Shown: positions 2,981-59,364 of the stretch, piece by piece
How the letters are laid out: each line of letters begins with the position of its first letter
Numbering within the stretch: the first letter of the stretch is position 1
From: Rickettsiales bacterium
GTDB taxonomy: Bacteria > Pseudomonadota > Alphaproteobacteria > Rs-D84
NCBI GenBank assembly: GCA_031265235.1
Contig: JAISCX010000029.1
Location: 19,137 to 83,136 of the forward strand
Length of the DNA: 64,000 bases
Direction of reading: 5' to 3'
Notes under the pieces: generated by a model
Database searches by the model: none
What the model was told of the DNA's origin: nothing
What the model saw: only the letters and a program-made list of their open reading frames with translations
Position numbers and translations under genes: made by a program

Positions 2981-3002
2981 AAAATCCATCCGGCGCCGTA
3001 CT

Positions 3003-4049
3003 TTATTCAAAATAGTTCAGATTCATCGCGCGCTTGACGCGGGCCAGCGTTTTCGCCGCCCTTGACCGCGCCCGCATTGTTCCGGCACGCAGTATTTCCA
3101 TAATGGCGCCGGGGTCGCGGGCCAGCGCTTCGCGCCGTTCGCGAATCGGCCGCAGCGTTTCCTGCATGACTTCGTTCAGGAATTTTTTCACCCGGACATC
3201 GCCAAGGCCGCCCCGTTCATAATGCGCGGCCAATTCCGCATAATTCTTATATTCCGGCATAAACGCTGTGAAATGTTCCGGCTTTGCAAACACCGACAGA
3301 TAAACGAACACCGGATTATTTTCCGTATGCCCCGGATCTTCCATGCGCAAATGCAACGGGTCGGTAAACATCGTTTTTATTTTCGCCGCAATTTCATCCG
3401 CGCTGTCTTTCAGATAAATCCCGTTACCAAGCGATTTTCCCATCTTTGCATTGCCATCGATCCCCGGCAGACGCGCCGCGGTTGCGCTTTCAGGCAGCAC
3501 CGCGCGCGGCATGATCAAAGTTTCACCATATATCGAATTAAATTTGCGCACTATTTCCTGGGTCTGTTCAATCATGGGCAGCTGGTCTTCGCCGACAGGC
3601 ACAATCGTCGCATCAAACGCGGTGATGTCCGCCGCCTGGGAAATAGGATACACAAAGAACCCGACCGGCACGCCGCCAGAAAATTTTTCTTTCTGCGCGA
3701 TTTCTGTCTTGACCGTCGGATTACGTTGCAAACGCGCAACAGTGACCAGGTTCATGTAATAGAAAGTCAGCTCTGCCAGCTCTGAAATTTCGGACTGGAT
3801 GAACAGGGTGGATTTTTCCGGATCAAGCCCGACAGACAAATAATCCAGCGCGACTTGCAGAATATTTTCGCGCACTTTTTCCGGGCTGTCGGCATTATCG
3901 GTAAGCGCCTGGGCATCCGCGACCATTATAAAAGGCTCATATTTACCCGTATTTTGCAATTCCACGCGCCGGTATAACGAACCGACATAGTGCCCGATAT
4001 GCAGCGGGCCAGTCGGTCTATCGCCCGTTAATATTATTTCTTTTTTCAT
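3003..4049 (-). CDS. trpS: tryptophan--tRNA ligase
   Basis: Class I aaRS HIGH-type motif ([12 protein letters not shown]) and KMGKS (KMSKS variant). 348 aa is typical of TrpS. Confidence 0.8.
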
Positions 4050-4089
4050 TTCTTCGCCTTTTGGTTAAGTCTTATACATTTAATCATTT

Positions 4090-4128
4090 TTTTCAATAAT
4101 AAAAAAGGGGCGCGTTAAACGCGCCCCG
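4090..4128 (-). terminator. rho-independent terminator downstream of gap
   Basis: GC hairpin GGGGCGCG-TTAAA-CGCGCCCC followed on the minus strand by a T-run. Confidence 0.7.
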
Positions 4129-4144
4129 CCGCCTTTCTGAAAGA

Positions 4145-5158
4145 TTATATCAATCTTCCAATCTCTGCGGCTGTCGCGCACATGCGGTTCGAAAAACCCC
4201 ATTCGTTATCATACCAAGACGTGACATGCAAAAGCTTGCCATCGACAACCTTGGTCAGGGTCGCGTCAAATATGCTTGAACGCGGATCATTCATAAAGTC
4301 CACGGACACCAGCGGCAGTTCGTTGTATCCCAATACGCCGGCTAGTTTCCCGTCCGCGGCTTTTTTCATGGCCGCGTTGACTTCCGCTTCTGTCACGGCT
4401 TTTTCAAGATTGACGACCAGTTCCACGACGGACACATCAGGCGTCGGAACACGGATCGCGACACCGTTCAATTTTCCTTCCAATTTTGGCAGGACTAATC
4501 CGATCGCCTTGGCCGCGCCCGTACTGGTCGGAATCATGGACACCGCAGCTGCGCGCGCGCGGCGCGGATCCTTGTGATTCTTGTCCAGCAGCTGCTGGTC
4601 GCCGGTATATGCGTGCACGGTTGTCATCCATCCGTCTTTGATTCCGAATGCTTCATCCAGAACCGCGGCCACAGGCGCAAGACAGTTCGTGGTGCACGAA
4701 CCGTTTGATACAATTTTCATGTCTTTGGTCAGAACATCATGGTTCACGCCGTAAACGATTGTGGCATCGGCGCCGTTGCTGGGCGCGGAAACCAATACCC
4801 TCTTCGCGCCCGCGTCAAGATGGACTTTTGCCTTGTCCGCGTCGGTGAATATTCCGGTGCATTCCATAACTATATCGATATCCAGTTCGCGCCAAGGCAG
4901 ATTCGTCGGATCCCTTTCAGAAACCACGGTGATATTATGCCCGCCGACCTTTATAACATTTCCATCAACATCAATCGGCATGTTCAATTTGCCATGGACG
5001 GAATCATATTCCAAAAGATACGCGTTTTGTTCCAGCGGCGCGATGTCGTTGATGGCGACAAATTCCAAATCGTCGCGTTTTGATTCCAGCGCCGCGCGCA
5101 GAATAAGCCTTCCGATGCGTCCGAACCCACTGATTGCAATTCTTGTTTTTTTACTCAT
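4145..5158 (-). CDS. gap: glyceraldehyde-3-phosphate dehydrogenase
   Basis: MSKKTRIAISGFGRIGR NAD-binding N-terminus and ASCTTNCLAP active-site motif. The true start is the ATG at 5158 (337 aa). The longer ORF to 5455 is an upstream in-frame extension with no homology. Confidence 0.9.
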   Translation of the reverse strand: MSKKTRIAISGFGRIGRLILRAALESKRDDLEFVAINDIAPLEQNAYLLEYDSVHGKLNMPIDVDGNVIKVGGHNITVVSERDPTNLPWRELDIDIVMECTGIFTDADKAKVHLDAGAKRVLVSAPSNGADATIVYGVNHDVLTKDMKIVSNGSCTTNCLAPVAAVLDEAFGIKDGWMTTVHAYTGDQQLLDKNHKDPRRARAAAVSMIPTSTGAAKAIGLVLPKLEGKLNGVAIRVPTPDVSVVELVVNLEKAVTEAEVNAAMKKAADGKLAGVLGYNELPLVSVDFMNDPRSSIFDATLTKVVDGKLLHVTSWYDNEWGFSNRMCATAAEIGRLI

Positions 5159-5282
5159 ATTTTTTCTCCTTGATAAAATATTGGACCCTAGATCGTGTCT
5201 ACAAATTATTGTGTGATTTGTAGACACGACTTGGATTATGCCACAAATAAAATTAAAATCCATTGGGAATTTTTTCAAAACA

Positions 5283-5310
5283 AAGCCCCGCCGTCGCGGG
5301 GCTTTGTTTT
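5283..5310. terminator. hairpin terminator-like element
   Basis: AAAGCCCCGC-CGTC-GCGGGGCTTT followed by GTTTT, between gap and the 5322 gene. Confidence 0.4.
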
Positions 5311-5321
5311 GATCAGTAATT

Positions 5322-5705
5322 TTAGCGGCTGAAAAACTTCGCGACTTTGGAATATTTATACCAATCATCCAATTGCAGACGATAGGTATTATCATTGGCA
5401 TATTGCGCATTTGCCGCAGCGTCATATCTTTCTTGACTCGGTTTGGACAAATCACCTCTGTCCATTTTCAACAGCTCTATGCCATCAATTTCCTGCTCCG
5501 CATTATCCCATTCGCTAATAATGGCGTTTTTTTCCTTTTGTTCGGACACCCCAATTACAACCCATGGCGCTATTGCAACCCCCAGCACGCATGCAATCGC
5601 AATTTTCAGCTGTTTGATCTTTTTATCCATGCCGCCGCGCAGCGTGGAAAAGCGCTTGTTCAGCAAATCTTTCTGTTCTTTTGTAAAAATTTCCATAGTT
5701 TCCAT
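5322..5705 (-). CDS. hypothetical single-pass membrane protein
   Basis: 127-aa ORF with a central hydrophobic helix (IAIACVLGVAIAPWVVIGV). No recognisable motif. Confidence 0.4.
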   Translation of the reverse strand: METMEIFTKEQKDLLNKRFSTLRGGMDKKIKQLKIAIACVLGVAIAPWVVIGVSEQKEKNAIISEWDNAEQEIDGIELLKMDRGDLSKPSQERYDAAANAQYANDNTYRLQLDDWYKYSKVAKFFSR

Positions 5706-5825
5706 TTGTTTTTTCCTTTTATTAATGATTCGCTACCCAACTATATTAACATATTACTATTATTGGTATATTTGTCAAGTTATTTTTTCTTTATGATTTT
5801 TGTTTATTGCTTTATAATTTGTTTC

Positions 5826-11921: not shown

Positions 11922-12026
11922 AATCAATTAGAGCGTGCCAGATGCGCCGATTAAGGCGGCGGGAGTGTATTGAACATACACGACCAAAGCTTTAATCGGT
12001 GCAGATGGTGCGTTATAATTGATTTA
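11920..12026. repeat. 107-bp imperfect palindromic element (copy X) forming the 3' end of the downstream cysteine-rich gene
   Basis: Perfect 11-bp terminal inverted repeats TAAATCAATTA / TAATTGATTTA. Central hairpin GTGTAT-TGAAC-ATACAC at the exact midpoint. Internal CAGATGCGCC boxes. The minus-strand TAA stop of the 12024..14627 gene lies inside the terminal repeat. Confidence 0.8.
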
Positions 12027-14627
12027 CATCGGGATGTCTTTGCAACTTTCGTCAGGCTTTTCTTCGGTGCATTCCATTCCGCGGCTGTCCCAAAGCCCCA
12101 AGAATCCGCGGCTGCCCTTGGTCTTGCAGTTTTTGCGAATGACCAATGTGCAGTAATGACAGTTTCGGTCTTTGCGGTTGAATATGGACCACATTTCTTT
12201 CGTGCCGCCTTCGAATTCAACCTTGTGATGATCGGATGACAACATTCCGATTGCCTTGACCGATGCATCCGCAATCATGCCCGCCGGATTTAGCGTCAAG
12301 ATCGCGCCCGCCGCGCCCAGCGCCGTACTCGTCGCGCCACCATCACTGCCGCCGGCAGCAGCACCGCTTTTTGTTTCCATTTTCGCACCGCCAAGTTTTT
12401 CAGACGAATGCGTTCCGCCAGCCGCGATAGACGCATTTGACACACCTGCGATTTCAAGAACTATGGCATACGGAATGCTGATCACACCTACGAAGTCGGA
12501 CGCCGCTATCCCTTGGGCGGAACCGTTGGTCGCCGGCAGCTTGTTGCACATCAAATTGGCAACGTCCGTGCTGGCGCTCTTGGTTGCTTCTGCCATCAAT
12601 TCATTGAACTTTTTATTATAATTATCCGTAGCCGCACGAATTGCGGACATCGCGATTGCCATCTTGATTTGATTCAACAGATTTGGGAATCTTCCCTTTG
12701 TTGAACCGCCGCCTTCTTTTATCTGGGACAAATCGCGACCGGTAATGCAATATTGAATCTTTGGATCTTGTTCGATCATATCGATCGCCGTATTTATCTT
12801 GCCCTGGATACTTTCCATTTCATAGCGCACATTATCTATGACGCTGGCGTATTCTGCCGGCACGCCCAAAGCGTCCACCTTTGCGATATAGTCTTGAATG
12901 TCAATCTTTCCGGGGGCAAGCGTTATCTCTTGACCGCTTGCATCCTTTACTTTGCTTTGTCCGTTGCCAACCTTTATCTGTCCGAAAGACAACATTCCGG
13001 TTATGCTGTATATTCCGCCGCGTTTTTGACTATTAAGCGACGACGTGCCGATGTTTTCGTCCGTCGCGAACTTGTCGCAGTCCGTAGTGCTGTCGCAGAT
13101 TTCCATCATTTTCGTGTTTACAATGTTCTGGCAATTTTCCAACGCCGAATTATCCACGTTCAAATAAAATCCCATCAGCATATTGTCTATATCGGACATG
13201 GAAAAATCTTTGTTTCCCTGCTTGCACACGACCAGCTTGTCCACCGGGCACATTTCATGCATATATTTATAATCCATGCCGATACAGTTCATAAAATCAG
13301 ATCCGCAGCGGTCGTCGGATGTAAAGCATTCCTTTACTTCCTCGGTGCAGCGATCCACGCGCATCGCGGCCAGCTTGTCCTTTACATATCCCCAGATTAA
13401 CGGTTCCATCCGTTCGCACGGGTCAATCTGATTCTTGCAGAAACTGCGCGCCATGTCCGGACGCGACAGGCATGAATCCATGGTGTCCACGCCCTTACCG
13501 ACGATATCGTCCTTGCACGCCTTTTGTATACAGCCGGAAATATCGGTCAGGCACGACTGGCGCATATTGGATTCAATGTTCAATTCCGCAGTCTTTAATT
13601 CCGGCGCGATATCGCGGATAAAGTCGGGCCACACCTGGTCCCTTACCGCGACGCATTGATCCAGAATACTTTCGCACATATTGCGTTTGGAATCCAACAT
13701 CTCGCGCGTGTTCGTCGAAATGCCATACTTGTCTATGTGCTCTACCTTTGTTTTCGCGGTGCTGACTGTCGCGGCCTGCATGTTTTCTGCCGCAACATAT
13801 TTCGCACAGCGCGACCAGTCTTCGCCACAGACATCCGGTCCCATCATGCATTTTTTAAAGCCAATCAAACAAGTCCCGCGGTCAAGTTTGTTCGATTCTT
13901 CAAATGACGCCAGACGCGCGTCGCGCACGTCTTTCTGGGCGCTTGCCAATTCCGCATCCGCCTTGCGCGATAATTCCTTTACCGCATTGTCAAAAGCCTT
14001 GCAGTCGTTTTTAACCTGGGTCGCGTAAAGCTGGGTCAGCATCATCTGATCTTTTTCGCAGGAATCCGGCATTTGATCAAGGCAAAGTCCGCGCGCGGCA
14101 TTGTAAAGCACAACCCCTGTCTTGCCGGCAACCGATTCCACGCTGCTCCAAATATCTTCGTTGTCGTCGTTCCAAAGGGACAACAAATCCAGCTTTTTTT
14201 GTTCCTTATTTGCCTTATTTTCTTTTTTTTCCAAACTGATCACATTGCCCTGGGCGTCGTATTGGCGATCCCCGCCAAAGACTATGTCTGCCTTTGCGCC
14301 GACCTGGATTTTTTCAACCTCTATCGTGCGCAGATTTTCGGCGTTTTTAAGCTGTGTCTCGATATCGGAAAGAACTTTTTCATACTTTACATTCTCGTCG
14401 CTGCATGCGCATGCACCGCCGGATTCATTGTCGGAAGTGCAGAACGAATCCATGCATCCGAAATAATTGTCGTAACATTCTTGGGAAAACAGTCCCGTTG
14501 GCTGGACTTTCTGGCGTATGGTCGTGCCGCTTGCGATAACGGACGTTTTCTTTGCGGTAACAGGGGCCGCATGCGCGTCAAAAATAAGCAATGAAAAAGA
14601 AATTGCGACAAATAATATTTTCTTCAT
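12024..14627 (-). CDS. secreted cysteine-rich protein, paralog family member P1 (867 aa)
   Basis: Signal peptide MKKILFVAISFSLLIFDAHA. Family motifs are ECYDNYFGCMDSFC...CACS, CLIGFKKCMMGPDVCGEDWSRC and CESILDQCVAV. A C-terminal Gly-rich hydrophobic (glycine-zipper) segment is followed by RNCHYC and a ...ESCKDIPM tail. Confidence 0.8.
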   Translation of the reverse strand: MKKILFVAISFSLLIFDAHAAPVTAKKTSVIASGTTIRQKVQPTGLFSQECYDNYFGCMDSFCTSDNESGGACACSDENVKYEKVLSDIETQLKNAENLRTIEVEKIQVGAKADIVFGGDRQYDAQGNVISLEKKENKANKEQKKLDLLSLWNDDNEDIWSSVESVAGKTGVVLYNAARGLCLDQMPDSCEKDQMMLTQLYATQVKNDCKAFDNAVKELSRKADAELASAQKDVRDARLASFEESNKLDRGTCLIGFKKCMMGPDVCGEDWSRCAKYVAAENMQAATVSTAKTKVEHIDKYGISTNTREMLDSKRNMCESILDQCVAVRDQVWPDFIRDIAPELKTAELNIESNMRQSCLTDISGCIQKACKDDIVGKGVDTMDSCLSRPDMARSFCKNQIDPCERMEPLIWGYVKDKLAAMRVDRCTEEVKECFTSDDRCGSDFMNCIGMDYKYMHEMCPVDKLVVCKQGNKDFSMSDIDNMLMGFYLNVDNSALENCQNIVNTKMMEICDSTTDCDKFATDENIGTSSLNSQKRGGIYSITGMLSFGQIKVGNGQSKVKDASGQEITLAPGKIDIQDYIAKVDALGVPAEYASVIDNVRYEMESIQGKINTAIDMIEQDPKIQYCITGRDLSQIKEGGGSTKGRFPNLLNQIKMAIAMSAIRAATDNYNKKFNELMAEATKSASTDVANLMCNKLPATNGSAQGIAASDFVGVISIPYAIVLEIAGVSNASIAAGGTHSSEKLGGAKMETKSGAAAGGSDGGATSTALGAAGAILTLNPAGMIADASVKAIGMLSSDHHKVEFEGGTKEMWSIFNRKDRNCHYCTLVIRKNCKTKGSRGFLGLWDSRGMECTEEKPDESCKDIPM

Positions 14628-14644
14628 TTTTTCTCTCTCTCCTA

Positions 14645-14751
14645 AAAATCAATCAGGATGGTGTAGATGCGTGGATTCGCAGACCCGACGTGTATTGGAC
14701 ATACACGAGGGTCGGTGAATGCGCGCAGATGCGCCATTATGATTGATTTTA
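14645..14751. repeat. 107-bp imperfect palindromic element (copy Y) forming the 3' end of the second cysteine-rich gene
   Basis: Terminal inverted repeats AAAATCAATCA / TGATTGATTTT (11/11), central GTGTAT-TGGAC-ATACAC hairpin at the midpoint, TAGATGCG / CAGATGCGCC boxes. The TAA stop of the 14749..16791 gene sits in the terminal repeat. Same length as copy X and alignable with it. Confidence 0.8.
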
Positions 14752-16791
14752 CATATTTACGTCCTCGCAGGATTCAAGTTCCTGGCAGAATTCTTTCGTG
14801 CCGCCGGACATCATTCCCATCAGCCCCCCGCCAACGCCGCCGACAATCGCGCCGATCGCCGTGCCCCATCCCGGCGTTACCATTGTTCCGGCCGACGCGC
14901 CCGCGGCCAGTCCGCCGGCCGCACCCTTCATCGCCGACGCGCCTTTTTCTTCGCCGCCGACTTCGCATACTTTTTGAACGCGGCAGATGTGACAGTTGCG
15001 CAAAGACGGTTCAAAGTGAACGCTTGCGATCCAGACATTGTCCGTATCTTTGTGATCCGATTTCATTTTTTCGCACGCGGCTTTGGCATCATTCAAATCT
15101 TCTTTGCGGGCCAATTCCACCACTTTTGCCTGATACGCGCGCTGGGCGCGGCCCTCGGCCGAAACCTTGGCCAGCAATTTTGCCGTGGTGAACACGTTCT
15201 TGCCCAGTCCGTTGCCGCTGCACTGCGTCACAGTCGTATCTTTTTCAAACTGTTTGAAGAAATTGTCCACTTCCTTGTCCGCATTCGCGCGCCAATCCAC
15301 GATGGCAGAAGACTTTTTCATGGCCGAAATCTGATCGTCCGACGGCAAGCATGACATATCCGTTCCGCATACGCGGCCCAGCGCGTCGCTGAAATAGTTG
15401 ATGCAGCCCTGCATCATCTGGTAATCCATTTGCAGCAATGTGCTGGACACGATCACGTCAAACTGCGTCTGACCCTTGCAGCTTGGGAACATGTTCTGTG
15501 GGCACAGTGCGACGATATCGCGCGGCTTTTTGCCAACGCACGCAGGATTGGTGAAATTCGCGCCACACTTTTCCTGCAAGCATTTGTCGATGTCGTTCTG
15601 GCAGAACCGCACGCGCAGGAATCCAAGCTTGTCATTAATGGATGTTTTGATTCCAGGCACCAAAGTATTGCATTCGTTTATGACCGGACACACGCCGGCG
15701 GCGATGTTCACATTATCCAGACATTGTGAATTCGTCGTGGGCGAACAAGAATCTTCCAAACATGCCTGGATCCGTGCAAAGCATGTTCCGCGACGGTTTT
15801 TGTCCGCGTATTCCGCGGCGTCCGCCAGAACCATCTTGGATTCCGCGGTCCAGTCTTCCAAAACATACTTTTTAACGGCCATGCATTGGTCAAGCACGTT
15901 GTCGCATGCATTCGCGCGCCGGGCCAAAAGTTCCGCGTCAAGACAGTTTTCAAAATTCGCGCCGCATCCGCCCTTGTCCGCGATGCAGTTTTTATACGTG
16001 ATCAGGCATTCGCCGCGATTATATTTGTTGGTGGTGTCAAGCATTTCGAATCTTGCCGCGCGCACGGCCTTGTCCGCGGCGGTTTTGTTGCCCGACGCAA
16101 TTTTCTTTTGGTCGTCCAAGAATGTCGTGAATGATTTGCAGTCTGCGGTAATCTGCCGCTCATAAAGCATTTCTTCCATTTTCGCGTCTTTGCCGCATGC
16201 TTTTAAATGGCGGCTGCATGATTCATACGCCATCGCGTAAAGATCGTCGCCAATGTCCATATCTTCGTCCAGCGATACGCCGTCGCCGCCACCGTAAACC
16301 CAAGACATAAAGTCAATGCCGCTTTTTTTCGCTTTCTCGCTTTGCCCGAATACCAGCACGGCTTTCGCGCCCAGCTTTTCGCGCTCGACGCCTTCGCCGA
16401 ACAATTTTTCGGCGGCGGCCTGGATATCGTTGATTTCTTTAATCAGCGGCTTGGAACGCGCGATATTGCCGGAACAGCTGCAGCGTTCACCTTCTGACGC
16501 GTCCATCAGACAGAACTGATCCATACAGTCGCGGTATGGCGCGCGGCATTCTTCACTGCTGCCGGTCACCGGTTCTTCGGCTTTTTTACCGCTGAAATCC
16601 GGTTTTATTTCTTGTTTCTCTTCCTCGTTCTGCGAATGCATGCTTACCCCCGCGACAACCGTGGTCACACGATTGTCCGCAATAGCAGGACGGACGCCGA
16701 CGCGCGCGGTATCGGTATTGTCCGCAGCGGACGCACAAAAAAACAGTAATACGGAAAACGCCGGCAGCATTGCCGTTATTGATCTCTTCAT
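14749..16791 (-). CDS. secreted cysteine-rich protein, paralog family member P2 (680 aa)
   Basis: Signal peptide MKRSITAMLPAFSVLLFFCASA. Family motifs are ECRAPYRDCMDQFC...CSCSG, CLITYKNCIADKGGCGANFENC and CDNVLDQCMAV. The C-terminus carries RNCHIC, a Gly-zipper segment and a ...ESCEDVNM tail. Colinear with P1 over most of its length. Confidence 0.8.
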   Translation of the reverse strand: MKRSITAMLPAFSVLLFFCASAADNTDTARVGVRPAIADNRVTTVVAGVSMHSQNEEEKQEIKPDFSGKKAEEPVTGSSEECRAPYRDCMDQFCLMDASEGERCSCSGNIARSKPLIKEINDIQAAAEKLFGEGVEREKLGAKAVLVFGQSEKAKKSGIDFMSWVYGGGDGVSLDEDMDIGDDLYAMAYESCSRHLKACGKDAKMEEMLYERQITADCKSFTTFLDDQKKIASGNKTAADKAVRAARFEMLDTTNKYNRGECLITYKNCIADKGGCGANFENCLDAELLARRANACDNVLDQCMAVKKYVLEDWTAESKMVLADAAEYADKNRRGTCFARIQACLEDSCSPTTNSQCLDNVNIAAGVCPVINECNTLVPGIKTSINDKLGFLRVRFCQNDIDKCLQEKCGANFTNPACVGKKPRDIVALCPQNMFPSCKGQTQFDVIVSSTLLQMDYQMMQGCINYFSDALGRVCGTDMSCLPSDDQISAMKKSSAIVDWRANADKEVDNFFKQFEKDTTVTQCSGNGLGKNVFTTAKLLAKVSAEGRAQRAYQAKVVELARKEDLNDAKAACEKMKSDHKDTDNVWIASVHFEPSLRNCHICRVQKVCEVGGEEKGASAMKGAAGGLAAGASAGTMVTPGWGTAIGAIVGGVGGGLMGMMSGGTKEFCQELESCEDVNM

Positions 16792-16916
16792 CTCTTATCC
16801 CCGATGTTGGTACGTGTTAATTTTATCAGAAAAAGTTAAAAGAATAAAGTTAAAAATTGAAATTTCGATCGTTGCGCGACAGCGCAGGCCGACATTTTAA
16901 CTTTCGGTTTTAATAA

Positions 16917-16945
16917 AAAAATCCGCCGTCCGGCGGATTTTTTTA
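16917..16945. terminator. bidirectional rho-independent terminator downstream of infA
   Basis: AAAATCCGCCGTCCGGCGGATTTTTTT. The identical 28-nt module recurs at 25499. Confidence 0.7.
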
Positions 16946-17200
16946 TTCGGTCGGCACAGCGTCGGTCGGCGCGGGCGCGCGATTGCGTTCGGCGCGCGTT
17001 ATGCGGCCCTTGTCCAGATCATACGGGGTCATTTCAACCTGGACCTTTTCGCCAACGTTCACCCAGATGCGATTTTTTCGCATCTTGCCGCACACGGTCG
17101 CGACAATCTCGTGCCCATTTTCTAACCGGACGCGAAACATTGTGTTGGGCATTTTATCCACAACCACACCGCTGAAAGTTATAACTTCGTCTCTTGCCAT
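16943..17200 (-). CDS. infA: translation initiation factor IF-1
   Basis: [69 protein letters not shown] is an S1-like fold and the IF-1 consensus. Confidence 0.9.
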
Positions 17201-17369
17201 AAAAAACCTTTATTTTATGCGGACAATAGTATCCATAAAAATTGAAAAAATCAAGGATATAATCGTGCGGGCGGTTCGTGCCGGTGCGGGCGGGTGGCGA
17301 TCGGCGCAATCCACTATTTTTCCTCTTGCCCCGCAATAATTAAATAAGCTAGAATCAAATTCATAGAGT

Positions 17370-20162
17370 ATGAGAAAAATTCTTATCTTTTTATCTGCCA
17401 TGTCGATTTCCGCGCATTGTCTGGCCGCGGCGCAAAATCCGCGCGCCACGACCGCCCAGCCGCGCGCGGCCGCGACCGTGGCGACAACTGCGCGCAATGC
17501 CACGGAACGCCCGGCGACAGCGGCCGTTTCCGCACGAAGCGCGGCCGTTGCCACACGCGCCGCGGCAACGGCGGCGCCAACCAACGCCAGATCTGCGAAA
17601 AACAATGCGACCGCACCCCGCGCGGCAACAAACAGCGCCGTGCGTACCGCACCTCACGCTGCACGCGAAGTTGTCGGAACCAACATCGCGGCGCGCGCGG
17701 CGTTGGTTCCGACAACTTCGACAATGGGCGACGGGTATAACGCATGCCGCGATGTTTACTTTACATGCATGGATCAATTCTGCGCGGCCAAAGACGACGT
17801 GTACCGCCGCTGCATGTGTTCCGGACGCTTGGATGAAATCCGCGAAAAAGAACGAAAGCTGAAACAATCCGCCGGACTTTTGCAAGACTTTGCGGAATAC
17901 AATATCGATGCGATTACCAAAACCGCCCAGGAAGTCGCGGCAATGCTGAAAGCAACGCCGGGCGAATACGCCGCGGCGACCGGGCAAAAATACGACAAAT
18001 CCGACGCCACGAAAAATCTTGCCGGAATTTCAAGCGTTTTGAATAATGCGAAATCTCAGTCCCTGTCCACCAAAGGCACCCTTGACATCGCCGGAAACAT
18101 CAATGCGATCTGGTCTTCTTCGGACTTGATAGGCAGCGGCGATATCGCGAATCTAGAAGGCAGGAAACTTTACGAACAGGTTCACGCCCAATGCGCGTCC
18201 ATATCGGCTGACGCATGCCCGCGCACCCCAACAATGAACATGGTCGTCAGCGCATACGGCATGTATATAGAACAGGACTGCAACGTAATATCCGCCGCAC
18301 TGGAAGGGAAAAGAATCCAAACCGCGGGCGACGTCCGCAAGACAGAACGCGTGATGAGCGAGGCGCGCCTGGAAAATTACAACGTCCACAATTCCGCGGC
18401 AGTCAACGAATGCATCGCCCAGGTTCGCAAAGATATCACCGAAGATCCCGCGTGCGGCCCGGAATTCGTCCATTGTCTGGATGTCACCGGCATGTATTTG
18501 GTATATGCCACGGGGGAACCGATTTACAGCCCCAGCTTTTTCAATCTTGAAAATCAAATTTCGCTGACCGGCGATACTCTAAGCAATTCGGCAAACAGGC
18601 TTTTCGTGTCGCTGTTGGAAAAGAACAAGGAATTCGCAAAGCGCGGGCTGGACACTTGCCGCGACATATCGGCGGACGTATGGGATGAATTCATGCGCCA
18701 GGCTTTGGTCGAAATATACCAGGGCCAGCAAAACCGAATCCGTGCGGTCAAAGATGAATGCATATCCGTCGTTAACGAATGCTATGACGCGCAGACGCAA
18801 AAGTTAAAGGACTTTTCAAACATGGACCGCCAATCCTTGCTGGGCCAAACTATCGAAACAGCCGAAGCGATGTGCAAGACAAAGCTTGACGCGTGTTCCA
18901 ATCTTTACGGCGGCGCAAGCGGATTGAAAGAACTGACGGATTTTGTGTTCAACGTAGGCAGCTTGAAAGTATCCGAATCTTGCGAGAAATATCTGGACCA
19001 ATACATTCGCAACATCTGCACTTTAAAGTCTGACACATTGCACGGATTCCCGTATGACTGCCGCATTCGCAAGCCGGGTTCGTATGTCTGCGAACAGTCC
19101 GGCGCATCATCGGATGATTGCAGCAAGGATTCCGTATACGCCCAGCTGGCGAAATACGCGCGTGAAAACTGTGTCCGGCCCAGTGTCCAGCCAGAAGATC
19201 CGCTGCCGTCCGTCGTCCAAACCGCGGTCAACCGCATTATGGATACCACGAAACGCGAAATGGAAAAATTGCTGCGCGCGGAATGCAAAAACGTATCCGG
19301 CGATTGGACGAATGATTTGGATAAACGTCCCAAAGACGATTCCACTGAAATTTTATCCGTATCGTTCGCGCTTGATGTTAATGCGGACCATGACTGGGGC
19401 ATATGTTTGGCGAACAGCTGCGACCTGGCCAATTCCGGCGAGAGATATACGGATGAATACGGCATACAGCAATGCTGTGCAAATACGGATTCGTATGACC
19501 CTGCTTCAAAGACATGCGTCGAAAAAGATGTAGCCATTTGCATCAGTTACGGCGACCATATCATAGTGGACACCAGTTGTTCGACACAGGGGAGACACGG
19601 CGACGACCATGGATGCGTGGTAAAAGATTGCAGATGCGATGATGGTTATCAGCTAGACGTTCCGGAAGAACCAAATACACCAGTGTCTTGCATACTGCGG
19701 CAATGTCCATCCGGATCGGACGATGCCACAGATTGCCCGGCCCCCAATGGTGCCAACGGGGAACTGGCCGGATGCGTGAAAAAAGATTGCAAATGCCAAA
19801 GCGATCACATAATAGATATTACCAACGGTGTGCGGGCATGCAAGAAAGTGGAGTGTGGAAGCGCATCATCATTTGATGCAACTTGCACGGAAGCGAATGG
19901 GGGAGATGAATACCTGCTCGGGGGCTGTTTCAAACAGTTTTGCAGATGCGACACAGATGCATATAAACAAAATAATTATAATACATGTCGCGCCACAGAT
20001 TGCCCCGACCACTCTCATGCCGAACAAGCTTGTTTGTCTAGCCCCGGAACAACAACTAATTGTCTTACTGACAAAAATGGTTGTAAATGCGATGATGGAT
20101 ACTCGGTAATGCTCCCTGATGGAGACTATGGATATCGCATGGTATGCCAATCTGATGTTTAA
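17370..20162 (+). CDS. secreted cysteine-rich protein, paralog family member P3 (930 aa), with N-terminal Ala/Thr/Arg-rich low-complexity region and C-terminal Cys-rich tandem modules
   Basis: Signal peptide MRKILIFLSAMSISAHCLAAA, then about 100 aa of A/T/R-rich low complexity. Family motifs are NACRDVYFTCMDQFC...CMCSG, ACGPEFVHC and CKTKLDAC. The C-terminal 250 aa carry repeated CxC...DGYQLD / GCVKKDCKC / GCKCDDGY modules. Confidence 0.8.
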   Translation: MRKILIFLSAMSISAHCLAAAQNPRATTAQPRAAATVATTARNATERPATAAVSARSAAVATRAAATAAPTNARSAKNNATAPRAATNSAVRTAPHAAREVVGTNIAARAALVPTTSTMGDGYNACRDVYFTCMDQFCAAKDDVYRRCMCSGRLDEIREKERKLKQSAGLLQDFAEYNIDAITKTAQEVAAMLKATPGEYAAATGQKYDKSDATKNLAGISSVLNNAKSQSLSTKGTLDIAGNINAIWSSSDLIGSGDIANLEGRKLYEQVHAQCASISADACPRTPTMNMVVSAYGMYIEQDCNVISAALEGKRIQTAGDVRKTERVMSEARLENYNVHNSAAVNECIAQVRKDITEDPACGPEFVHCLDVTGMYLVYATGEPIYSPSFFNLENQISLTGDTLSNSANRLFVSLLEKNKEFAKRGLDTCRDISADVWDEFMRQALVEIYQGQQNRIRAVKDECISVVNECYDAQTQKLKDFSNMDRQSLLGQTIETAEAMCKTKLDACSNLYGGASGLKELTDFVFNVGSLKVSESCEKYLDQYIRNICTLKSDTLHGFPYDCRIRKPGSYVCEQSGASSDDCSKDSVYAQLAKYARENCVRPSVQPEDPLPSVVQTAVNRIMDTTKREMEKLLRAECKNVSGDWTNDLDKRPKDDSTEILSVSFALDVNADHDWGICLANSCDLANSGERYTDEYGIQQCCANTDSYDPASKTCVEKDVAICISYGDHIIVDTSCSTQGRHGDDHGCVVKDCRCDDGYQLDVPEEPNTPVSCILRQCPSGSDDATDCPAPNGANGELAGCVKKDCKCQSDHIIDITNGVRACKKVECGSASSFDATCTEANGGDEYLLGGCFKQFCRCDTDAYKQNNYNTCRATDCPDHSHAEQACLSSPGTTTNCLTDKNGCKCDDGYSVMLPDGDYGYRMVCQSDV

Positions 20163-20243: not shown

Positions 20244-20981
20244 ATGCTAAAAACCAAACTGTTTGCTTTTTACTTTTCGTTTTTTGTTTTCTGTTCCGCA
20301 GCCCAAGCGGCAACGCCCTGGTGGCTGCAGCCTACTATTTGCCAGCTCAGCCCGACGAAATGCTATCCGTCTATGGGCGCGGGATTCGACGCCGGCATGT
20401 GGGACGCGAATGCAAACTGTTGGGGAATGAAAATAATTTGTCCGGATGCCTTTTCAACCGGCTCGCATAACGACCCGGCACCTGTTTCCAAAACGACTCT
20501 CATGGCCGGCACCGGAATAAAGGTGGATTTTGACACGGATTTGTTCTTTGCGGGTGACGGATGCTATGGCGCGCGGCGGACAGCCGGGGGCGGCGCATAC
20601 GCGCTTGTAAACGGGACCCAGGCAAAGATTTATTGTGCCGGCGTATTGCAGAATCCGACGGAAACATTGACGAATGGAGAAATCACCACAGGCCCCCAGC
20701 CAACGTGCGCACAGCTTGCCGCGGACGGGTGGGTCGCCGTGCAGAATGGAAATTGCTTTGGCAAACAGTATTCCGCGAATGATTATTTCATAGAATGCGG
20801 AAACGACGCGTCCGATCTGCCGAACAGAATTGTCGCGATCCGCGGCGCCAGCAGCTTTGTGACGGGCGGCGCCGGCAATTCCGGCGGCAGCACGCCGTCA
20901 ACGCAATCAGCGGCGAATTCATTGTTTGACCTGATGATCCAGGCATCCGCCGCGCGCAAATCAACGCAATTTAATCAATAA
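20244..20981 (+). CDS. hypothetical secreted protein
   Basis: Signal peptide MLKTKLFAFYFSFFVFCSAAQAA. 245 aa with Cys, Gly and aromatic residues and no known motif. Confidence 0.5.
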   Translation: MLKTKLFAFYFSFFVFCSAAQAATPWWLQPTICQLSPTKCYPSMGAGFDAGMWDANANCWGMKIICPDAFSTGSHNDPAPVSKTTLMAGTGIKVDFDTDLFFAGDGCYGARRTAGGGAYALVNGTQAKIYCAGVLQNPTETLTNGEITTGPQPTCAQLAADGWVAVQNGNCFGKQYSANDYFIECGNDASDLPNRIVAIRGASSFVTGGAGNSGGSTPSTQSAANSLFDLMIQASAARKSTQFNQ

Positions 20982-22077: not shown

Positions 22078-22154
22078 GCGCCCATAGCTTAACTGGATAA
22101 AGCATCTGACTACGGATCAGAAGACTGAGGGTTCGAATCCTTCTGGGCGCGCCA
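22078..22154 (+). tRNA. tRNA-Arg (anticodon ACG)
   Basis: Cloverleaf: acceptor GCGCCCA/TGGGCGC, D-arm GCTT/AAGC, anticodon stem TCTGA/TCAGA with loop CTACGGA, T-arm GAGGGTTCGAATCCTTC, 3' CCA encoded. Confidence 0.9.
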
Positions 22155-22403: not shown

Positions 22404-22456
<53 letters not shown>

Positions 22457-22554: not shown

Positions 22555-22965
22555 ATGAATACAGGCAAACTGTTCACAGCAATATTCGGCGCCATGGTCT
22601 TGGCCGCGGCCGGCAACGCGCATGCCGCGCCCCAGATCAAATACAATTATAACGGAACCAATTATTCGGCCGAGACGGACGCGAACAAGGTAAAATCAAT
22701 ATCCGGCGGCGGCACGGGAATCACCGCGGCCGCAACGGACGACCAGTATCCCAGCGCCAAGGCGGTAAAGGACACTTTGGACGGCGCGGAACAAGTCGGC
22801 AACCGCGCGACCGATGTCGGCGATTCCACAACCACGACGACATATCCGACAACCGGCGCCGTGCGAAGCGCACTGAACGCGCAATTTGTTCAAAAATCAA
22901 ACGAAGCCGAGGCCGCCGCATATTCCGCCGCCCATCCAAATGTCTTGGTTTACATACCAGAGTAA
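22555..22965 (+). CDS. small secreted protein (136 aa)
   Basis: Signal peptide MNTGKLFTAIFGAMVLAAAGNAHA. Repeated YPSAKAVKDTLDG / YPTTGAVRSALN motifs. Confidence 0.5.
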   Translation: MNTGKLFTAIFGAMVLAAAGNAHAAPQIKYNYNGTNYSAETDANKVKSISGGGTGITAAATDDQYPSAKAVKDTLDGAEQVGNRATDVGDSTTTTTYPTTGAVRSALNAQFVQKSNEAEAAAYSAAHPNVLVYIPE

Positions 22966-22974
22966 TTCGTTTTC

Positions 22975-24036
22975 ATGTCAATGGTCGAAAATCTTATAAT
23001 TGCCGCAATAATACCTTTATCCGGAATAGAATCCGGCGGCAATATTCTGACGGTCACAGGTTCGAATTTTCCATATCATTCTATCAACAGTTATGTTTCC
23101 GACGGATTGGTCGCCCATTATGACGGGATCGACAACCAAGGCCTGGGGGATGAAAACCATTCAACCGACACGCTGGTTTGGAAAGACCTGTCCGGAAACA
23201 ACAACAACGTGACGTTTAGCGGCGCTTTGGGAAACGCCAAATGGACGGCCAAAGGATTCAAGCTCGGCGACAACCGCTTTTTCCAAAATACCGCATTGAA
23301 CATGATTGGTCTGCCGTTCGGGAACGAAAGCTATACCATCGAACTGGTCTGGGATCCAAGACAAAGCAAGAATCTTGGTGATGGCGGTTTATTGGGATGG
23401 GGATGCAATGGCGCCGGCAGCCAGACAAACAATACACGCTTTCTGAATGCGACGTTAACGAATCAATGCTTTCGCCATTATTGGTGGTCCAATGATTTCG
23501 ATTTTTGCGTCCCGACGTCCGACAATCCCGTTCGAAACATTGCCATAACATATGACAATACTGTCGGGCGCCGCGGTTATTTCAACGGCGTTCTCTTCGG
23601 AACCAATTCCAATAAAAACAAAAACACGTGCACGTCCGGCGGATTCTATATCGGAAAAACAACGAATAACGAATATGCGACCGGCACTTTGGTTTTTTCA
23701 ATCAGAATTTACAACCGCCAGCTGACGGATGCGGAAATTGCGCAAAACCACGCCATCGACAGCGCAAGATTTCAAAATCTGCCCGTTGTAAAAATAGGCG
23801 AAAATCTTTGCGACGATCTGAAGTTGCTGTCCGACACCAAAATGACCTGTATCGTTCCGGCCGGATCAGGAACAAACGACATAACCATGGGCTATGGTGG
23901 CGATGAAAACGTCATTATCGGCGCATACAAGTATATTATAAAAAACCTGTGGCATTCCGTCTATTCAATACGGAAAATATTCATCCAGGGAAAATCCGTA
24001 AAGAACATGTTTATCAGCGGCCGCAAGATATTCTAA
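22975..24036 (+). CDS. IPT/TIG plus LamG-like (concanavalin-type jelly-roll) domain protein
   Basis: N-terminal IPLSGIESGGNILTVTGSNF (IPT-like). Central AHYDGIDNQG...WKDLSGNNNNVTF...KGFKLGDN pattern typical of LamG/ConA-like lectin domains. C-terminal IPT-like KMTCIVPAGSGTNDITMGYGGD. 10-bp spacing from the preceding gene suggests an operon. Confidence 0.5.
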   Translation: MSMVENLIIAAIIPLSGIESGGNILTVTGSNFPYHSINSYVSDGLVAHYDGIDNQGLGDENHSTDTLVWKDLSGNNNNVTFSGALGNAKWTAKGFKLGDNRFFQNTALNMIGLPFGNESYTIELVWDPRQSKNLGDGGLLGWGCNGAGSQTNNTRFLNATLTNQCFRHYWWSNDFDFCVPTSDNPVRNIAITYDNTVGRRGYFNGVLFGTNSNKNKNTCTSGGFYIGKTTNNEYATGTLVFSIRIYNRQLTDAEIAQNHAIDSARFQNLPVVKIGENLCDDLKLLSDTKMTCIVPAGSGTNDITMGYGGDENVIIGAYKYIIKNLWHSVYSIRKIFIQGKSVKNMFISGRKIF

Positions 24037-25500: not shown

Positions 25501-25527
25501 AATCCGCCGTCCGGCGGATTTTTTTAA
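25499..25527. terminator. bidirectional rho-independent terminator (secG and ankyrin operon)
   Basis: AAAATCCGCCGTCCGGCGGATTTTTTT, identical to the module at 16917. Confidence 0.7.
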
Positions 25528-26489
25528 CAGCCTAATTCTTTCATTATATCAGCCCTGACTTGATTCGCTTTTGCTTGCGCGCAAACGCTCCGCCCCCAGC
25601 TGTCCTTGTCATCCAATCTCGCGCCTTTCTCTTTTAATTTTACCACAGCATCCTTGCATTCGTAATATGCCGCCTCTCTTATAGCAGAAAATCCATAAGT
25701 TCCTTTGCTATTCACATCAGCGCCATTATCTATCAAGAAATTTATGAAATCCATATTACAATGCCGGGCTGCAATAAAAAGCGCGGTCCCCCTGGCAGAA
25801 TCTTGATAATCTATTATATCAGGGTGTTCTGTTATCAAATTTTTTGCTTCTTCAAACTGCTTTGCAAACACTGCATCAATCATTTGTTCCGATACAGGTT
25901 TTTCTTCTTTTGGGGTATTTGATGATATTACTTGCTCAACATTTGCTGTATTTTGTTCACATGCAAACATCTGACGAATTTGTCCGCTTCCGTCCGCCAA
26001 AGTGCAATGCATGATTTTCGTAAAACCATTTTCTCTGGTTACTATTTCGCTACGATCATTGGTGCAAGTTATATTCGGTGTAAATTTGGGGCCCAATTCT
26101 CGATTTACATATTCTTCACTTAAAAATTCGCATGCTTTTGCGCCTTCGTCTATCAAATTCTGTGCGATCACATTTTCATCTGATTCATTTTGATTTTCCT
26201 GATCACCGCCGGAACCAAGCAGACCGTCCGCCCCAGGAATAGCCCCGCCCAATGTGCTCAATAAATTATTATCGGTGACGGCGCCGGTAACTTGTTCAAT
26301 AATACCGCCAGCGTTCTTAGCCGCGCAAACGCCTTTGCTTTCATCATATTTTTTTTCCTTTAATTCGCACACAGCTTCTGTATGTTTTTTCAAAATTTTA
26401 TCCGCTTCCTCTATATCAACCGCAGCCGCATGCGCGACGCTGGAAAGCGCAAAGGTAAAAATAATAAAAGAAGCAATCTTTTTAAACAT
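25524..26489 (-). CDS. secreted ankyrin-repeat protein
   Basis: Start taken at MFKKIASFIIFTFALSSVAHA (signal peptide). The C-terminal half has 3-4 ankyrin repeats (GTALFIAARHCNMDFINFLIDNGADVNSKGTYGFSAI...). TGATG stop/start overlap with the upstream gene. Confidence 0.7.
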   Translation of the reverse strand: MFKKIASFIIFTFALSSVAHAAAVDIEEADKILKKHTEAVCELKEKKYDESKGVCAAKNAGGIIEQVTGAVTDNNLLSTLGGAIPGADGLLGSGGDQENQNESDENVIAQNLIDEGAKACEFLSEEYVNRELGPKFTPNITCTNDRSEIVTRENGFTKIMHCTLADGSGQIRQMFACEQNTANVEQVISSNTPKEEKPVSEQMIDAVFAKQFEEAKNLITEHPDIIDYQDSARGTALFIAARHCNMDFINFLIDNGADVNSKGTYGFSAIREAAYYECKDAVVKLKEKGARLDDKDSWGRSVCAQAKANQVRADIMKELGC

Positions 26490-27610
26490 CACTTGTATTC
26501 TTTCAGGGATTGATTCAACTGGACGCATTCTGTTCTTTTGACATAATCGCCCGTGCATTCCGCATTATATACATTCTGGGCATTTTTATATGTCGTCTTG
26601 AATTTCTCTTGGGTTACATTTTCTTGCTTTTTCCCGCCGTATTTTTCTATATCGCCCTGGCCCAGTTTCGGGAAAATCTCGTTCACCGCAAGATTTCCAA
26701 CAAGACCGACACCTATACCAACAAGCGCAGTTGTCGCACCAGTCTTCATCTTTGACGCTGCTTCGCCAGAATCCAGGCGTTCTTGCGCTGTATCAAACCG
26801 GTTCGCTGTCTTGCCGCCTGCCCCGTTTTCTCCATAATCATACAATGATGATTTATCCACAATTAATTCCGACTCTATCCCCGCAGGCATCCCAAGGTTT
26901 TCTTTCGCAGAGCGGGTCTTGTCCGCAATTCTTATATATTCCGACTTTAATTCAACCGCCCGCGCAGGATTCGAAAATCCCGGCGCTGCGCCTGTTTCTC
27001 CACGTCTGATCTTGCCGCCACGGCCGGATATTTCACAGGTTATTGTGGACAGATATGCTGCGATGTCCGCCGCTGAGTCTTCGTCTGCTTTCTTTTCTGC
27101 TGCGCCTTGGAAATAGTTCATGCCGCCGATGCCCGCCGCACCGATCGCCGCGGCCCCGATCAGCTTGTTCGCAGTCGATTGTTCACGTGCCTTTGCCTCT
27201 GCCGCTTTTTGTTTTAGATCATCCGCCCTTGTCTGATCGAAATATTTTTCATTTTCTTTTTCCACATCCGCGCCAGTTTGCGGCGGGACAGCATCATCTG
27301 GTTTTGTTTCGTCCGGTTTTTTGTTATTTGGATCTGATTCTTCACTTTCTTCACCAGAAGTCACGCCATTCTTTGCATCTTTGATCTTGTCGGACGCAGT
27401 CACTATGGATTGATCCCTCTTATCAATGGCTGCTTTTATGGTGTCGTTATCCAGATATTTAGAATATTGTTCAATCAGCTTATTAACAGTATCTTCATAT
27501 TCTTTATTGGCTTTTGCCAGGGCGGCATCCTGGGCGGAAAAATCCACCCCTTCCCCGAAAGCAAATCCGGGAACACACAGTGCGAAAAAAATCAAAATAC
27601 ATTTTTTCAT
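26489..27610 (-). CDS. secreted hypothetical protein with C-terminal glycine-zipper segment and Cys pair
   Basis: Signal peptide MKKCILIFFALCVPGFAFG. Acidic/Lys-rich middle region. C-terminal TALVGIGVGLVGNLAV hydrophobic Gly-zipper followed by NAECTGDYVKRTEC. Confidence 0.6.
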   Translation of the reverse strand: MKKCILIFFALCVPGFAFGEGVDFSAQDAALAKANKEYEDTVNKLIEQYSKYLDNDTIKAAIDKRDQSIVTASDKIKDAKNGVTSGEESEESDPNNKKPDETKPDDAVPPQTGADVEKENEKYFDQTRADDLKQKAAEAKAREQSTANKLIGAAAIGAAGIGGMNYFQGAAEKKADEDSAADIAAYLSTITCEISGRGGKIRRGETGAAPGFSNPARAVELKSEYIRIADKTRSAKENLGMPAGIESELIVDKSSLYDYGENGAGGKTANRFDTAQERLDSGEAASKMKTGATTALVGIGVGLVGNLAVNEIFPKLGQGDIEKYGGKKQENVTQEKFKTTYKNAQNVYNAECTGDYVKRTECVQLNQSLKEYK

Positions 27611-59337: not shown

Positions 59338-59364
59338 AAAAAATCCGCGCGGCGCGCGGATTTT
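59338..59364 (-). terminator. rho-independent terminator downstream of the large surface-protein gene
   Basis: AAATCCGCGCG-GCGC-GCGGATTT with a T-run on the minus strand. Confidence 0.6.

Follow-up and report, generated by a model that had tools for sequence, protein, structure and literature searches.

Cysteine-rich secreted paralogues encoded around infA: candidate structural envelope proteins of Rs-D84 gut Alphaproteobacteria

What is the role of P1, P2 and P3, three large, secreted and cysteine (Cys)-rich proteins encoded around infA in a gut alphaproteobacterium? The question is raised by a stretch of 64,000 nucleotides from a Rickettsiales bacterium of the GTDB lineage Rs-D84 (GenBank assembly GCA_031265235.1, contig JAISCX010000029.1, positions 19,137 to 83,136), which was analysed at its full length and is called the window throughout. 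The reading that we favour, with a probability of about 0.4, is that P1, P2 and P3, together with o245, the product of a gene downstream of P3, and probably c321, encoded at a second locus, are lineage-specific structural envelope proteins of the Rs-D84 gut Alphaproteobacteria. The genes concerned, given as open reading frames (ORFs) with window coordinates, are the following.

P1, 12024-14627, minus strand: ORF of 867 amino acids with 36 Cys.
P2, 14749-16791, minus strand: ORF of 680 amino acids with 37 Cys; the most conserved paralogue.
infA, 16943-17200, minus strand: translation initiation factor IF-1 (TIGR00008, E 8.9e-26), between P2 and P3.
P3, 17370-20162, plus strand: ORF of 930 amino acids with 53 Cys; the divergent paralogue.
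o245, 20244-20981, plus strand: secreted protein of 245 amino acids with 9 conserved mature Cys, downstream of P3.
c321, 55189-56154, plus strand: secreted protein of 321 amino acids with 20 Cys, probably a distant short family member.
c668, 56155-58161, plus strand: secreted protein of 668 amino acids with 34 Cys and a C-terminal OmpA domain.

The three large ORFs, their sizes and their layout round infA are exactly as claimed in a preliminary description of this DNA; the block extends further than that description had it, to the end of o245 at 20981, and the c321/c668 locus (55189-58161) has to be added. P1 corresponds to LBK26_03265 and P3 to LBK26_03280 (identical), both annotated as 'hypothetical protein'. 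Cys makes up 4.2% of P1, 5.4% of P2 and 5.7% of P3, as against 0-2% in most other genuine genes of the window. The N-termini of the three proteins show a positive charge, then a hydrophobic stretch and then an AxA-type cleavage site, as expected of the Sec signal peptides that had been noted. Behind its signal peptide, P1 consists of a helical Cys-rich core, a Gly/Ala-rich hydrophobic region and a Cys-containing C-terminal domain (ending in CKDIPM). In P2, a disordered linker (residues 21-73) leads to a long-helix Cys core (about 80-580) and a C-terminal beta domain with a glycine zipper. The signal peptide of P3 is followed by a disordered region rich in Arg, Thr and Ala (residues 16-116, nucleotides 17415-17717), a helical Cys core (121-641) and small C-terminal beta Cys modules (about 730-930, nucleotides 19557-20159). 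Thus the Ala/Thr/Arg-rich N-terminus and C-terminal Cys modules attributed to P3, and the Gly-rich tails attributed to P1 and P2, are all present. A hydropathy scan confines the hydrophobicity of P3 to the signal peptide and finds no hydrophobic anchor.

Two details of these ORFs may be mentioned here. The longest ORF of P2 begins 7 codons upstream of the public Joint Genome Institute (JGI) start (P0121, 673 amino acids), and the 680-residue form has a better signal-peptide n-region (MKRS...) than the 673-residue form; P2 residue numbers refer to the longer one. P1, P2 and nearly all their orthologues terminate in a conserved C-[EKQ]-D-[IV]-x-M-COOH (window 12024-12050 and 14749-14775). A C-terminal Met that does not vary is unusual, and it might serve as a tag for recognition or sorting.

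P1, P2 and P3 are true paralogues. In an all-against-all BLASTP comparison of the window ORFs, P1 and P2 share 26% identity over 478 amino acids (E 3e-40), while P1/P3 and P2/P3 align at E 1.6e-12 and at E 6e-8 to 3e-9, respectively; these three proteins are the only ones so connected. Three ordered Cys motifs had been described as common to them, and a MAFFT alignment places all three in register. P3 departs from them at two points, since its motif 2 lacks the middle Cys (it reads DCNVI) and its motif 3 lacks the first (LDTC). An alignment of 120 sequences, 40 per paralogue, contains 26 invariant columns, about 20 of which are Cys. The three orthologue groups all conserve 23 Cys columns, and P1 and P2 each conserve 36. 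Motif 1 is far beyond chance: its skeleton, C-x3-Y-x2-C-M-D-x-F-C-x9-C-x-C, has 4 matches in the six-frame translation of the window (shuffled mean 0.05), in P1, P2, P3 and c321 and nowhere else in the window. A four-Cys module, C-x6-C-x4-6-C-G-x-[DNE]-[FWY]-x2-5-C, has 5 window matches against 0 in shuffles and occurs twice within P1 and twice within P2. The matches lie as follows.

Motif 1 (six-frame regular-expression scan): P2, 16474-16548, minus strand; P1, 14403-14477; P3, 17745-17819; c321, 55273-55359.
Four-Cys 'CG-x-N-F' module: P2, 15943-16008, minus strand, and 15538-15603; P1, 13806-13871 and 13284-13349; c668, 56611-56670.

If the family is defined by motif 1, some 23 colinear Cys columns and a long-helix core, P1, P2 and P3 show all of these traits and c321 shows part of them, while c668 has a CG-x-D-F module only. 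The definition leaves out o245. A comparison of o245 with the family profile by hhalign gave no match, and it was dropped as a family member, being not homologous to P1-P3.

The family is large. At E<=1e-3, P1 has about 1300 matches, P2 965 and P3 727, which form one orthologue group per paralogue, spread over hundreds of uncultured gut Alphaproteobacteria whose genomes are below 1 Mb; for the top 120 of every group, identity to the query is 42-67%. All these homologues are unnamed ('hypothetical') and none has a Pfam domain. A profile built from the 120-sequence alignment was compared with 1.84 billion cluster representatives and matched 1050 clusters at E<=1e-3, 548 of them at E<=1e-30, and a scan of one genome per species gave at least 527 confirmed motif copies. 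The best 80 species-level loci (L001-L080), to which the synteny counts below refer, belong to Candidatus Enterousia and to unnamed metagenome-assembled genomes (MAGs) of Alphaproteobacteria or 'Rickettsiales', from the guts of human, ruminant, horse, rabbit, chicken and termite. A few family-bearing contigs (L001, L067, P0262) carry the label of an 'uncultured Muribaculaceae' or 'Lachnospiraceae bacterium' MAG. Wrong binning or labelling of Rs-D84 contigs is the most likely reason, rather than a true occurrence in those groups. Copies of P2 were not detected in phages and plasmids by tblastn, and an origin of the family in a mobile element was rejected on this ground.

In at least 54 of the 80 loci the genes are laid out as o245(-) P3(-) infA(-) / P2(+) P1(+), and most of the others are truncated versions of this order; o245 likewise keeps its place beside the other genes in at least 54. 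The five genes are kept together while those further out vary between genomes. The same block is found on an annotated Enterousia contig of 933 kb, where its neighbours are a Pmp-like autotransporter at one end and, at the opposite end, an MscS channel and a BOF (YgiW-like) protein. In many Enterousia genomes an autotransporter of 750-1190 amino acids directly adjoins o245 (cluster c5: L007, L055, L065, L079); one copy, at 2409-5813 (plus strand) of locus L081, has faint matches to chlamydial Pmp repeats and an Autotransporter beta-domain. The preliminary description had the family arranged around infA. As synteny this holds, infA being present in 76 of the 80 loci, but it does not extend to function. 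In the window infA lies on the strand of P2 and P1, whereas in about 75 of the 76 loci that have it, it lies on that of P3. The orientation in the window amounts to a local inversion of one small gene inside an otherwise conserved block. A functional link of the family to infA was discarded because this orientation is not conserved: infA is a syntenic bystander, with no fixed co-transcription with either arm. Scans for promoters and terminators gave chance-level results only, and an Rfam scan gave one unrelated tRNA and nothing else.

The proteins are also conserved in sequence. Over the same loci the median identity to orthologues is 57% for P2, 49% for P1, 49% for P3 and 44% for o245, and that of reference proteins is 57% for Pgk, 59% for RnhB, 65% for ClpP and 75% for ClpX. 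P2 thus evolves like a housekeeping enzyme, at the level of Pgk or RNase HII. The hosts have reduced genomes. Rs-D84 genomes measure about 0.75-1.0 Mb; they encode neither respiration nor pathways to make amino acids, nucleotides or lipids, they keep genes for rod shape and for peptidoglycan, and a partner-dependent lifestyle has been inferred (PMC12306168).

The way in which Cys residues are gained and lost bears on the state of the thiols. In the clade of P1 and P2, 316 members have an even number of mature Cys and 22 an odd number, as counted after crude signal-peptide trimming, with a mode of 36; of the departures from 36, 61 are even and 22 odd. Conserved Cys residues of P2 disappear in pairs, C603 with C675 in 7 sequences, C609 with C669 in 3, C475 with C481 in 2 and C82 with C199 in 1, beside one single loss. 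P1 shows the paired losses 834+853 (5 sequences), 359+404 (2) and 434+460 (1), and seven single losses. Because of this even parity and paired loss, the extensive disulfide bonding that had been postulated for these proteins appears likely for P1 and P2, in the form of fixed intramolecular pairs. The positions of both recurrent P2 pairs sum to 1278, as antiparallel strands in register would require, and in the structural model of P2 (see below) the strands concerned flank the zipper. On these strands, the model and the paired losses agree independently of each other. Gaps of exactly 7 residues between Cys occur 10 times in P1 and 8 times in P2; such i/i+7 spacing would put the Cys on one face of a helix. 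Family-wide covariation of Cys is dominated by the split between P1/P2 and P3 and is therefore uninformative on pairing, so that only losses within a clade could be used.

P3 and o245 behave differently from this even pattern. The o245 orthologues have 9 mature Cys in 55 of 61 cases. An odd mature count is found in 42 of 60 P3 orthologues and in 56 of 60 o245 orthologues, and in 38 of 60 loci both are odd; P3 of the window has an even count, 52. An intermolecular disulfide between P3 and o245 is conceivable, and these counts may be taken as a hint of it.

The preliminary description could not assign the proteins to a described family, and wider searches leave this unchanged. Scans with Pfam, NCBIfam, PADLOC and PHROGs returned only sub-threshold glycine-zipper matches in the tail of P2. 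Neither P1 nor the family profile matched a PDB sequence (best E for the profile 0.29), and profile searches, which the preliminary description had proposed, found no characterised domain family. Among the divergent family members, the 50 longest showed no informative fused domain in Pfam, and the names of cluster members for divergent representatives were equally uninformative. There is no Pfam match for o245. In a literature search no description of the family was found; it is catalogued solely as 'hypothetical protein'.

AlphaFold models had also been proposed, with an analysis of disulfide pairing. Models of P2 and P3 were obtained with AlphaFold2 from deep alignments, while the pairing was read from sequence evolution, as above, and not from model distances. 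The mean predicted local distance difference test (pLDDT) score is 78 for P2, with residues 80-610 mostly above 80, and 71.5 for P3. In both models the core is a bundle of long helices, which reach about 55 residues. The P2 model ends in a three-stranded sheet (586-594, 599-611, 667-679); in that of P3, residues 16-116 are disordered and precede the helical core, and small beta modules form the C-terminus. Foldseek comparison of the two models with solved structures returned nothing at E<=1e-3. The fold neighbours listed were generic long antiparallel helix bundles (rods of the spectrin/alpha-actinin type and designed bundles), all non-significant. P1, P2 and P3 are accordingly rated new both as a protein family and as a fold, the latter with respect to solved structures only.

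How might such proteins be held in the envelope? The preliminary description had proposed that the hydrophobic tails of P1 and P2 anchor them. A C-terminal Gly-rich, anchor-like hydrophobic segment is indeed present. In P1 the hydrophobic peaks lie at residues 712-730 and 768-786; in P2 the segment is the following.

P2 glycine-zipper loop, 14797-14940, minus strand: residues 618-665, between strands 599-611 and 667-679.

This glycine-rich part of P2 has a hydropathy of 1.40 and appears in the AlphaFold2 model as a low-confidence loop inserted in the sheet. From the paired losses, C603-C675 and C609-C669 would be disulfides that staple the base of the loop. With the flanking strands tied in this manner, the zipper would be a re-entrant hairpin closed at its base. 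A single-pass transmembrane helix was abandoned for P2 because both ends would be disulfide-tied. No glycine-zipper profile (PF13441, PF13488, NF053611) matches P1 or P3. Nor do the proteins look like lipoproteins, since the Cys of the signal peptide is not conserved and not in a lipobox context. A Pfam scan at E<=1 revealed no beta-barrel, autotransporter, two-partner secretion (TPS), YadA_anchor or other export domain in P1-P3. The same scans do detect translocators in neighbours, namely YadA_anchor at 45518-47215 and Autotransporter in L081.

Additional clues come from the second locus, where the c321/c668 pair sits after ClpP and ClpX. By MAFFT, c321 is colinear with the family for motifs 1 and 2. 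When a second sequence was added to c321, hhalign of the family profile against this pair alignment gave a probability of 82% (E 1e-5), and c321 is probably a short, distant paralogue of P1, P2 and P3. In c668, a Cys-rich helical region with CG-x-D-F modules is followed by a glycine-zipper-like segment (393-411, hydropathy 1.62), a charged linker and an OmpA peptidoglycan-binding domain (residues 547-641, PF00691, E 2.9e-9, above the curated cutoff). Pfam finds no such domain in P1, P2, P3 or o245. A relation of c668 to the family may exist but is weakly supported; in one locus (L049) the c668/c321 pair directly adjoins P1, and a metagenome scan seeded with c668 found no relatives. An OmpA domain is necessarily periplasmic. 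Because it precedes this domain, the zipper of c668 cannot be an inner-membrane stop-transfer anchor. The architecture of c668 thus argues for export of the zippers, and for Cys-rich domains that lie in the periplasm along with peptidoglycan.

These elements can be combined into a model. P1-P3 would be exported by Sec, cleaved by signal peptidase I and retained in the periplasm, the compartment being proposed because a lipobox, a barrel or any other surface-export module is missing. They would fold into elongated bundles of long helices, rigidified by some 18 intramolecular disulfides. The C-terminal glycine-zipper hairpin would attach P1 and P2 to one leaflet of a membrane, most likely the inner one of the outer membrane; the proposal rests on an analogy with zippers of the YiaD/SlyB type, to which the match is weak. 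P3, o245 and c321, having no hydrophobic segment beyond the signal peptide, would be soluble partners, with o245 presumably co-transcribed. Jointly, the proteins may form a scaffold or tether that gives the envelope mechanical support in a minimal-genome organism. The model is favoured by the retention of the family in genomes under 1 Mb and by the conservation of the block while its flanks differ. Genes for a YadA anchor, an SLT transglycosylase and an M23 peptidase also lie in the window, which implies that a diderm envelope with peptidoglycan is present.

Several observations do not sit well with this proposal. The zipper matches of P2 are poor: residues 619-661 reach E 0.0058 and 16.8 bits with PF13441 (Gly-zipper_YMGG), whose curated cutoff is 28.9, and the tail scores E 0.027 with PF13488 (Gly-zipper_Omp) and E 0.017 with NF053611 (YiaD), below the curated cutoffs as well. 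The support drawn from c668 is limited, as hhalign against the family gives it a probability of 6-11% (E 0.006 to 0.0026) and its Enterousia homologues lack the OmpA domain. The paired losses are few, and they come from related sequences with no correction for phylogeny; in the P3 clade odd Cys counts (98) prevail over even ones (57). Disulfides also require an oxidant. Rs-D84 is an anaerobic fermenter without a respiratory chain (PMC12306168), and no Dsb or VKOR gene is found among the window ORFs scanned, so the oxidising power has no evident source. Finally, the C-terminal tail of P3 ranges from 0 to 386 amino acids among orthologues and its N-terminus is disordered and of low complexity, features more typical of exposed, diversifying proteins.

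The last point leads to a different view, in which the outer membrane anchors P1 and P2, and P3 reaches outward together with o245 to bind a partner cell or the host. We regard such a surface attachment complex as possible, though doubtful. Rs-D84 bacteria have been inferred to depend on partners and to use uncharacterised membrane proteins for cell-cell interaction (PMC12306168). The disordered Arg/Thr-rich N-terminus of P3 and its small, species-variable C-terminal Cys beta modules would suit a protein of this kind, as would the company it keeps: the Enterousia block is flanked by a Pmp-like autotransporter, and the window encodes ankyrin-repeat proteins and a YadA-type adhesin. However, a recognisable route across the outer membrane (autotransporter, TPS domain, lipobox) is lacking, and P1 and P2 change no faster than housekeeping enzymes. 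Furthermore, the zipper of P2, with its putatively disulfide-tied ends, could not span the membrane once and expose the core on the far side. The adhesin function that the preliminary description had considered is therefore a poor fit for P1 and P2, given their housekeeping-like conservation and the absence of a surface-export module. The high Cys content of several co-located secreted proteins has also been considered in terms of transmission. The Cys would stay reduced in the anoxic gut and form intermolecular cross-links on exposure to oxygen, thereby hardening the envelope into a resistant form suited to transmission, in function an analogue of the chlamydial complex. The chlamydial precedent, where envelope rigidity depends on disulfides, speaks for this, as does the lack of a respiratory chain to drive a classical DsbB (PMC12306168). 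Most P3 and o245 orthologues have an odd number of Cys, which would leave one free for an intermolecular bond; these odd counts hinge on a crude trim of the signal peptide, and P3 of the window is even (52). Against the idea, the proteins have no homology to OmcA, OmcB or MOMP, the paired Cys losses and even counts of P1 and P2 speak for fixed pairs within each molecule and not for opportunistic cross-linking, and with the peptidoglycan machinery in place the sacculus has no obvious need of a substitute. We consider this unlikely.

Two functional alternatives seem very improbable. P1-P3 could be a multi-component system of alpha-helical membrane-active proteins, pore-forming or nutrient-tapping, in the manner of the tripartite ClyA-family toxins, whose hydrophobic head would enter a target membrane. 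In favour, the three paralogues are exported by Sec, consist of long helices and have their genes side by side, one end of P2 carries a hydrophobic Gly-rich segment flanked by beta strands, the lifestyle is partner-dependent (PMC12306168), and SmhA figures in the Foldseek list of P3, at a non-significant E of 7.7. Yet P1-P3 are two to three times larger and locked by disulfides, while such toxins need to refold extensively; P3 has no hydrophobic head, and a toxin-type Pfam match was not seen. Storage or binding of metal by helical bundles whose core is lined with Cys, as in the copper storage protein Csp1, would account for the recurrent i/i+7 spacing, which puts thiols on one helix face (10 gaps in P1, 8 in P2), and the proteins are exported or periplasmic. 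But they match neither the Csp family (DUF326) nor another metal-binding family (Pfam, E<=1), their Cys content of about 5% is far below Csp density, and conserved His or Met partners were not noted. In addition, the Cys are lost in pairs and counts are even, as for disulfides, and the putative C82-C199 pair of P2, some 117 positions apart, better fits a structural cross-link. A bolder form of the structural model would see in these proteins an unrecognised envelope skeleton, essential to the cell, in which disulfide-stapled helical rods are attached through the re-entrant glycine-zipper anchor and, via a relative, through OmpA; in these ultra-small gut Alphaproteobacteria it may be hardened by a redox switch once cells leave the anoxic gut. 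It would then be a convergent counterpart, on a new fold, of the chlamydial cysteine-rich envelope complex. We regard this as rather improbable.

A few neighbours deserve mention. Ankyrin-repeat proteins are encoded at 25524-26558 and 59364-63017 (both minus strand), and the one of 1217 amino acids has homologues that adjoin the block in 12 loci; the ORF at 45518-47215 (plus strand) is a YadA-anchor trimeric autotransporter. Such a repertoire is characteristic of bacteria engaged in interactions with eukaryotic or other host cells. Beyond a tRNA-Arg(ACG) at 22078-22154, a perfect (AG)24 repeat at 22406-22453 lies about 100 bp upstream of an ORF for a small secreted protein (22555-22965), which is followed by a TIG/Laminin_G_3 protein at 22975-24036. 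The repeat could be a phase-variation switch.

Lineage-specific secreted orphan proteins are common. Together the three paralogues occupy some 7.4 kb, nearly 1% of a genome of this size, and Rs-D84 (Candidatus Enterousia) is a widespread uncultured gut lineage. With a conservation that equals that of glycolytic enzymes, and with neither a detectable relative nor a known fold, P1-P3 are a prime candidate for a lineage-defining structure of the envelope or of the partner interface. Their function bears on how minimal diderms stabilise or specialise their envelope, on markers or antigens by which the lineage might be tracked, and on a new disulfide-rich helical architecture. Should they prove to be lineage-specific surface proteins of an ordinary kind, an annotation gap of more than 1000 protein clusters would still be filled.

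How do these proteins compare with known systems? The tripartite toxins of the ClyA family (Hbl, Nhe, AhlABC, SmhABC) likewise comprise three helical paralogues that are exported by Sec and encoded side by side, and at least one component (here P2) has a hydrophobic element beside beta strands, but there is no significant similarity in fold or sequence, and P1-P3 are of much greater size, presumably rich in disulfides and as conserved as core genes. The Sel1-like Hcp proteins of Helicobacter are also secreted helical proteins in which disulfides bridge helix pairs. P1-P3 differ from them in having no match of the Sel1/SLR/TPR type (Pfam, E<=1), far longer helices and another architecture and size. 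In terms of function, the nearest known systems are the chlamydial Cys-rich envelope proteins and the glycine-zipper/OmpA proteins of the outer membrane. With chlamydial OmcB (60 kDa) and OmcA (9 kDa), the comparison already drawn in the preliminary description, they share Sec export, richness in Cys, presumed location in the envelope, the encoding of several such proteins together in a dependent bacterium with a reduced genome, and a presumably central role of disulfides. This comparison holds as an analogy, whereas homology was tested and not found: P1-P3 match neither Chlam_OMP6 (PF03504) nor Chlam_OMP3 (PF03503) in Pfam at E<=1, and NCBIfam is negative. Other differences are that P2 and P3 are predicted to be long-helix bundles, that fixed intramolecular pairs are indicated, and that the peptidoglycan machinery is retained. 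The glycine-zipper proteins and lipoproteins of the outer membrane, finally, differ in several respects. The profile scores stay below the cutoffs, a lipobox or lipid anchor is lacking, the zipper here is C-terminal and inserted in a beta hairpin that disulfides would staple, and it is joined to a Cys-rich helical domain of 550-700 amino acids with no counterpart there. Like YiaD, SlyB/PCP and the Rickettsia 17-kDa antigen, however, P1, P2 and c668 have a zipper-type segment that is rich in Gly and Ala and moderately hydrophobic, and c668 shares with YiaD the order of a zipper followed by an OmpA domain.

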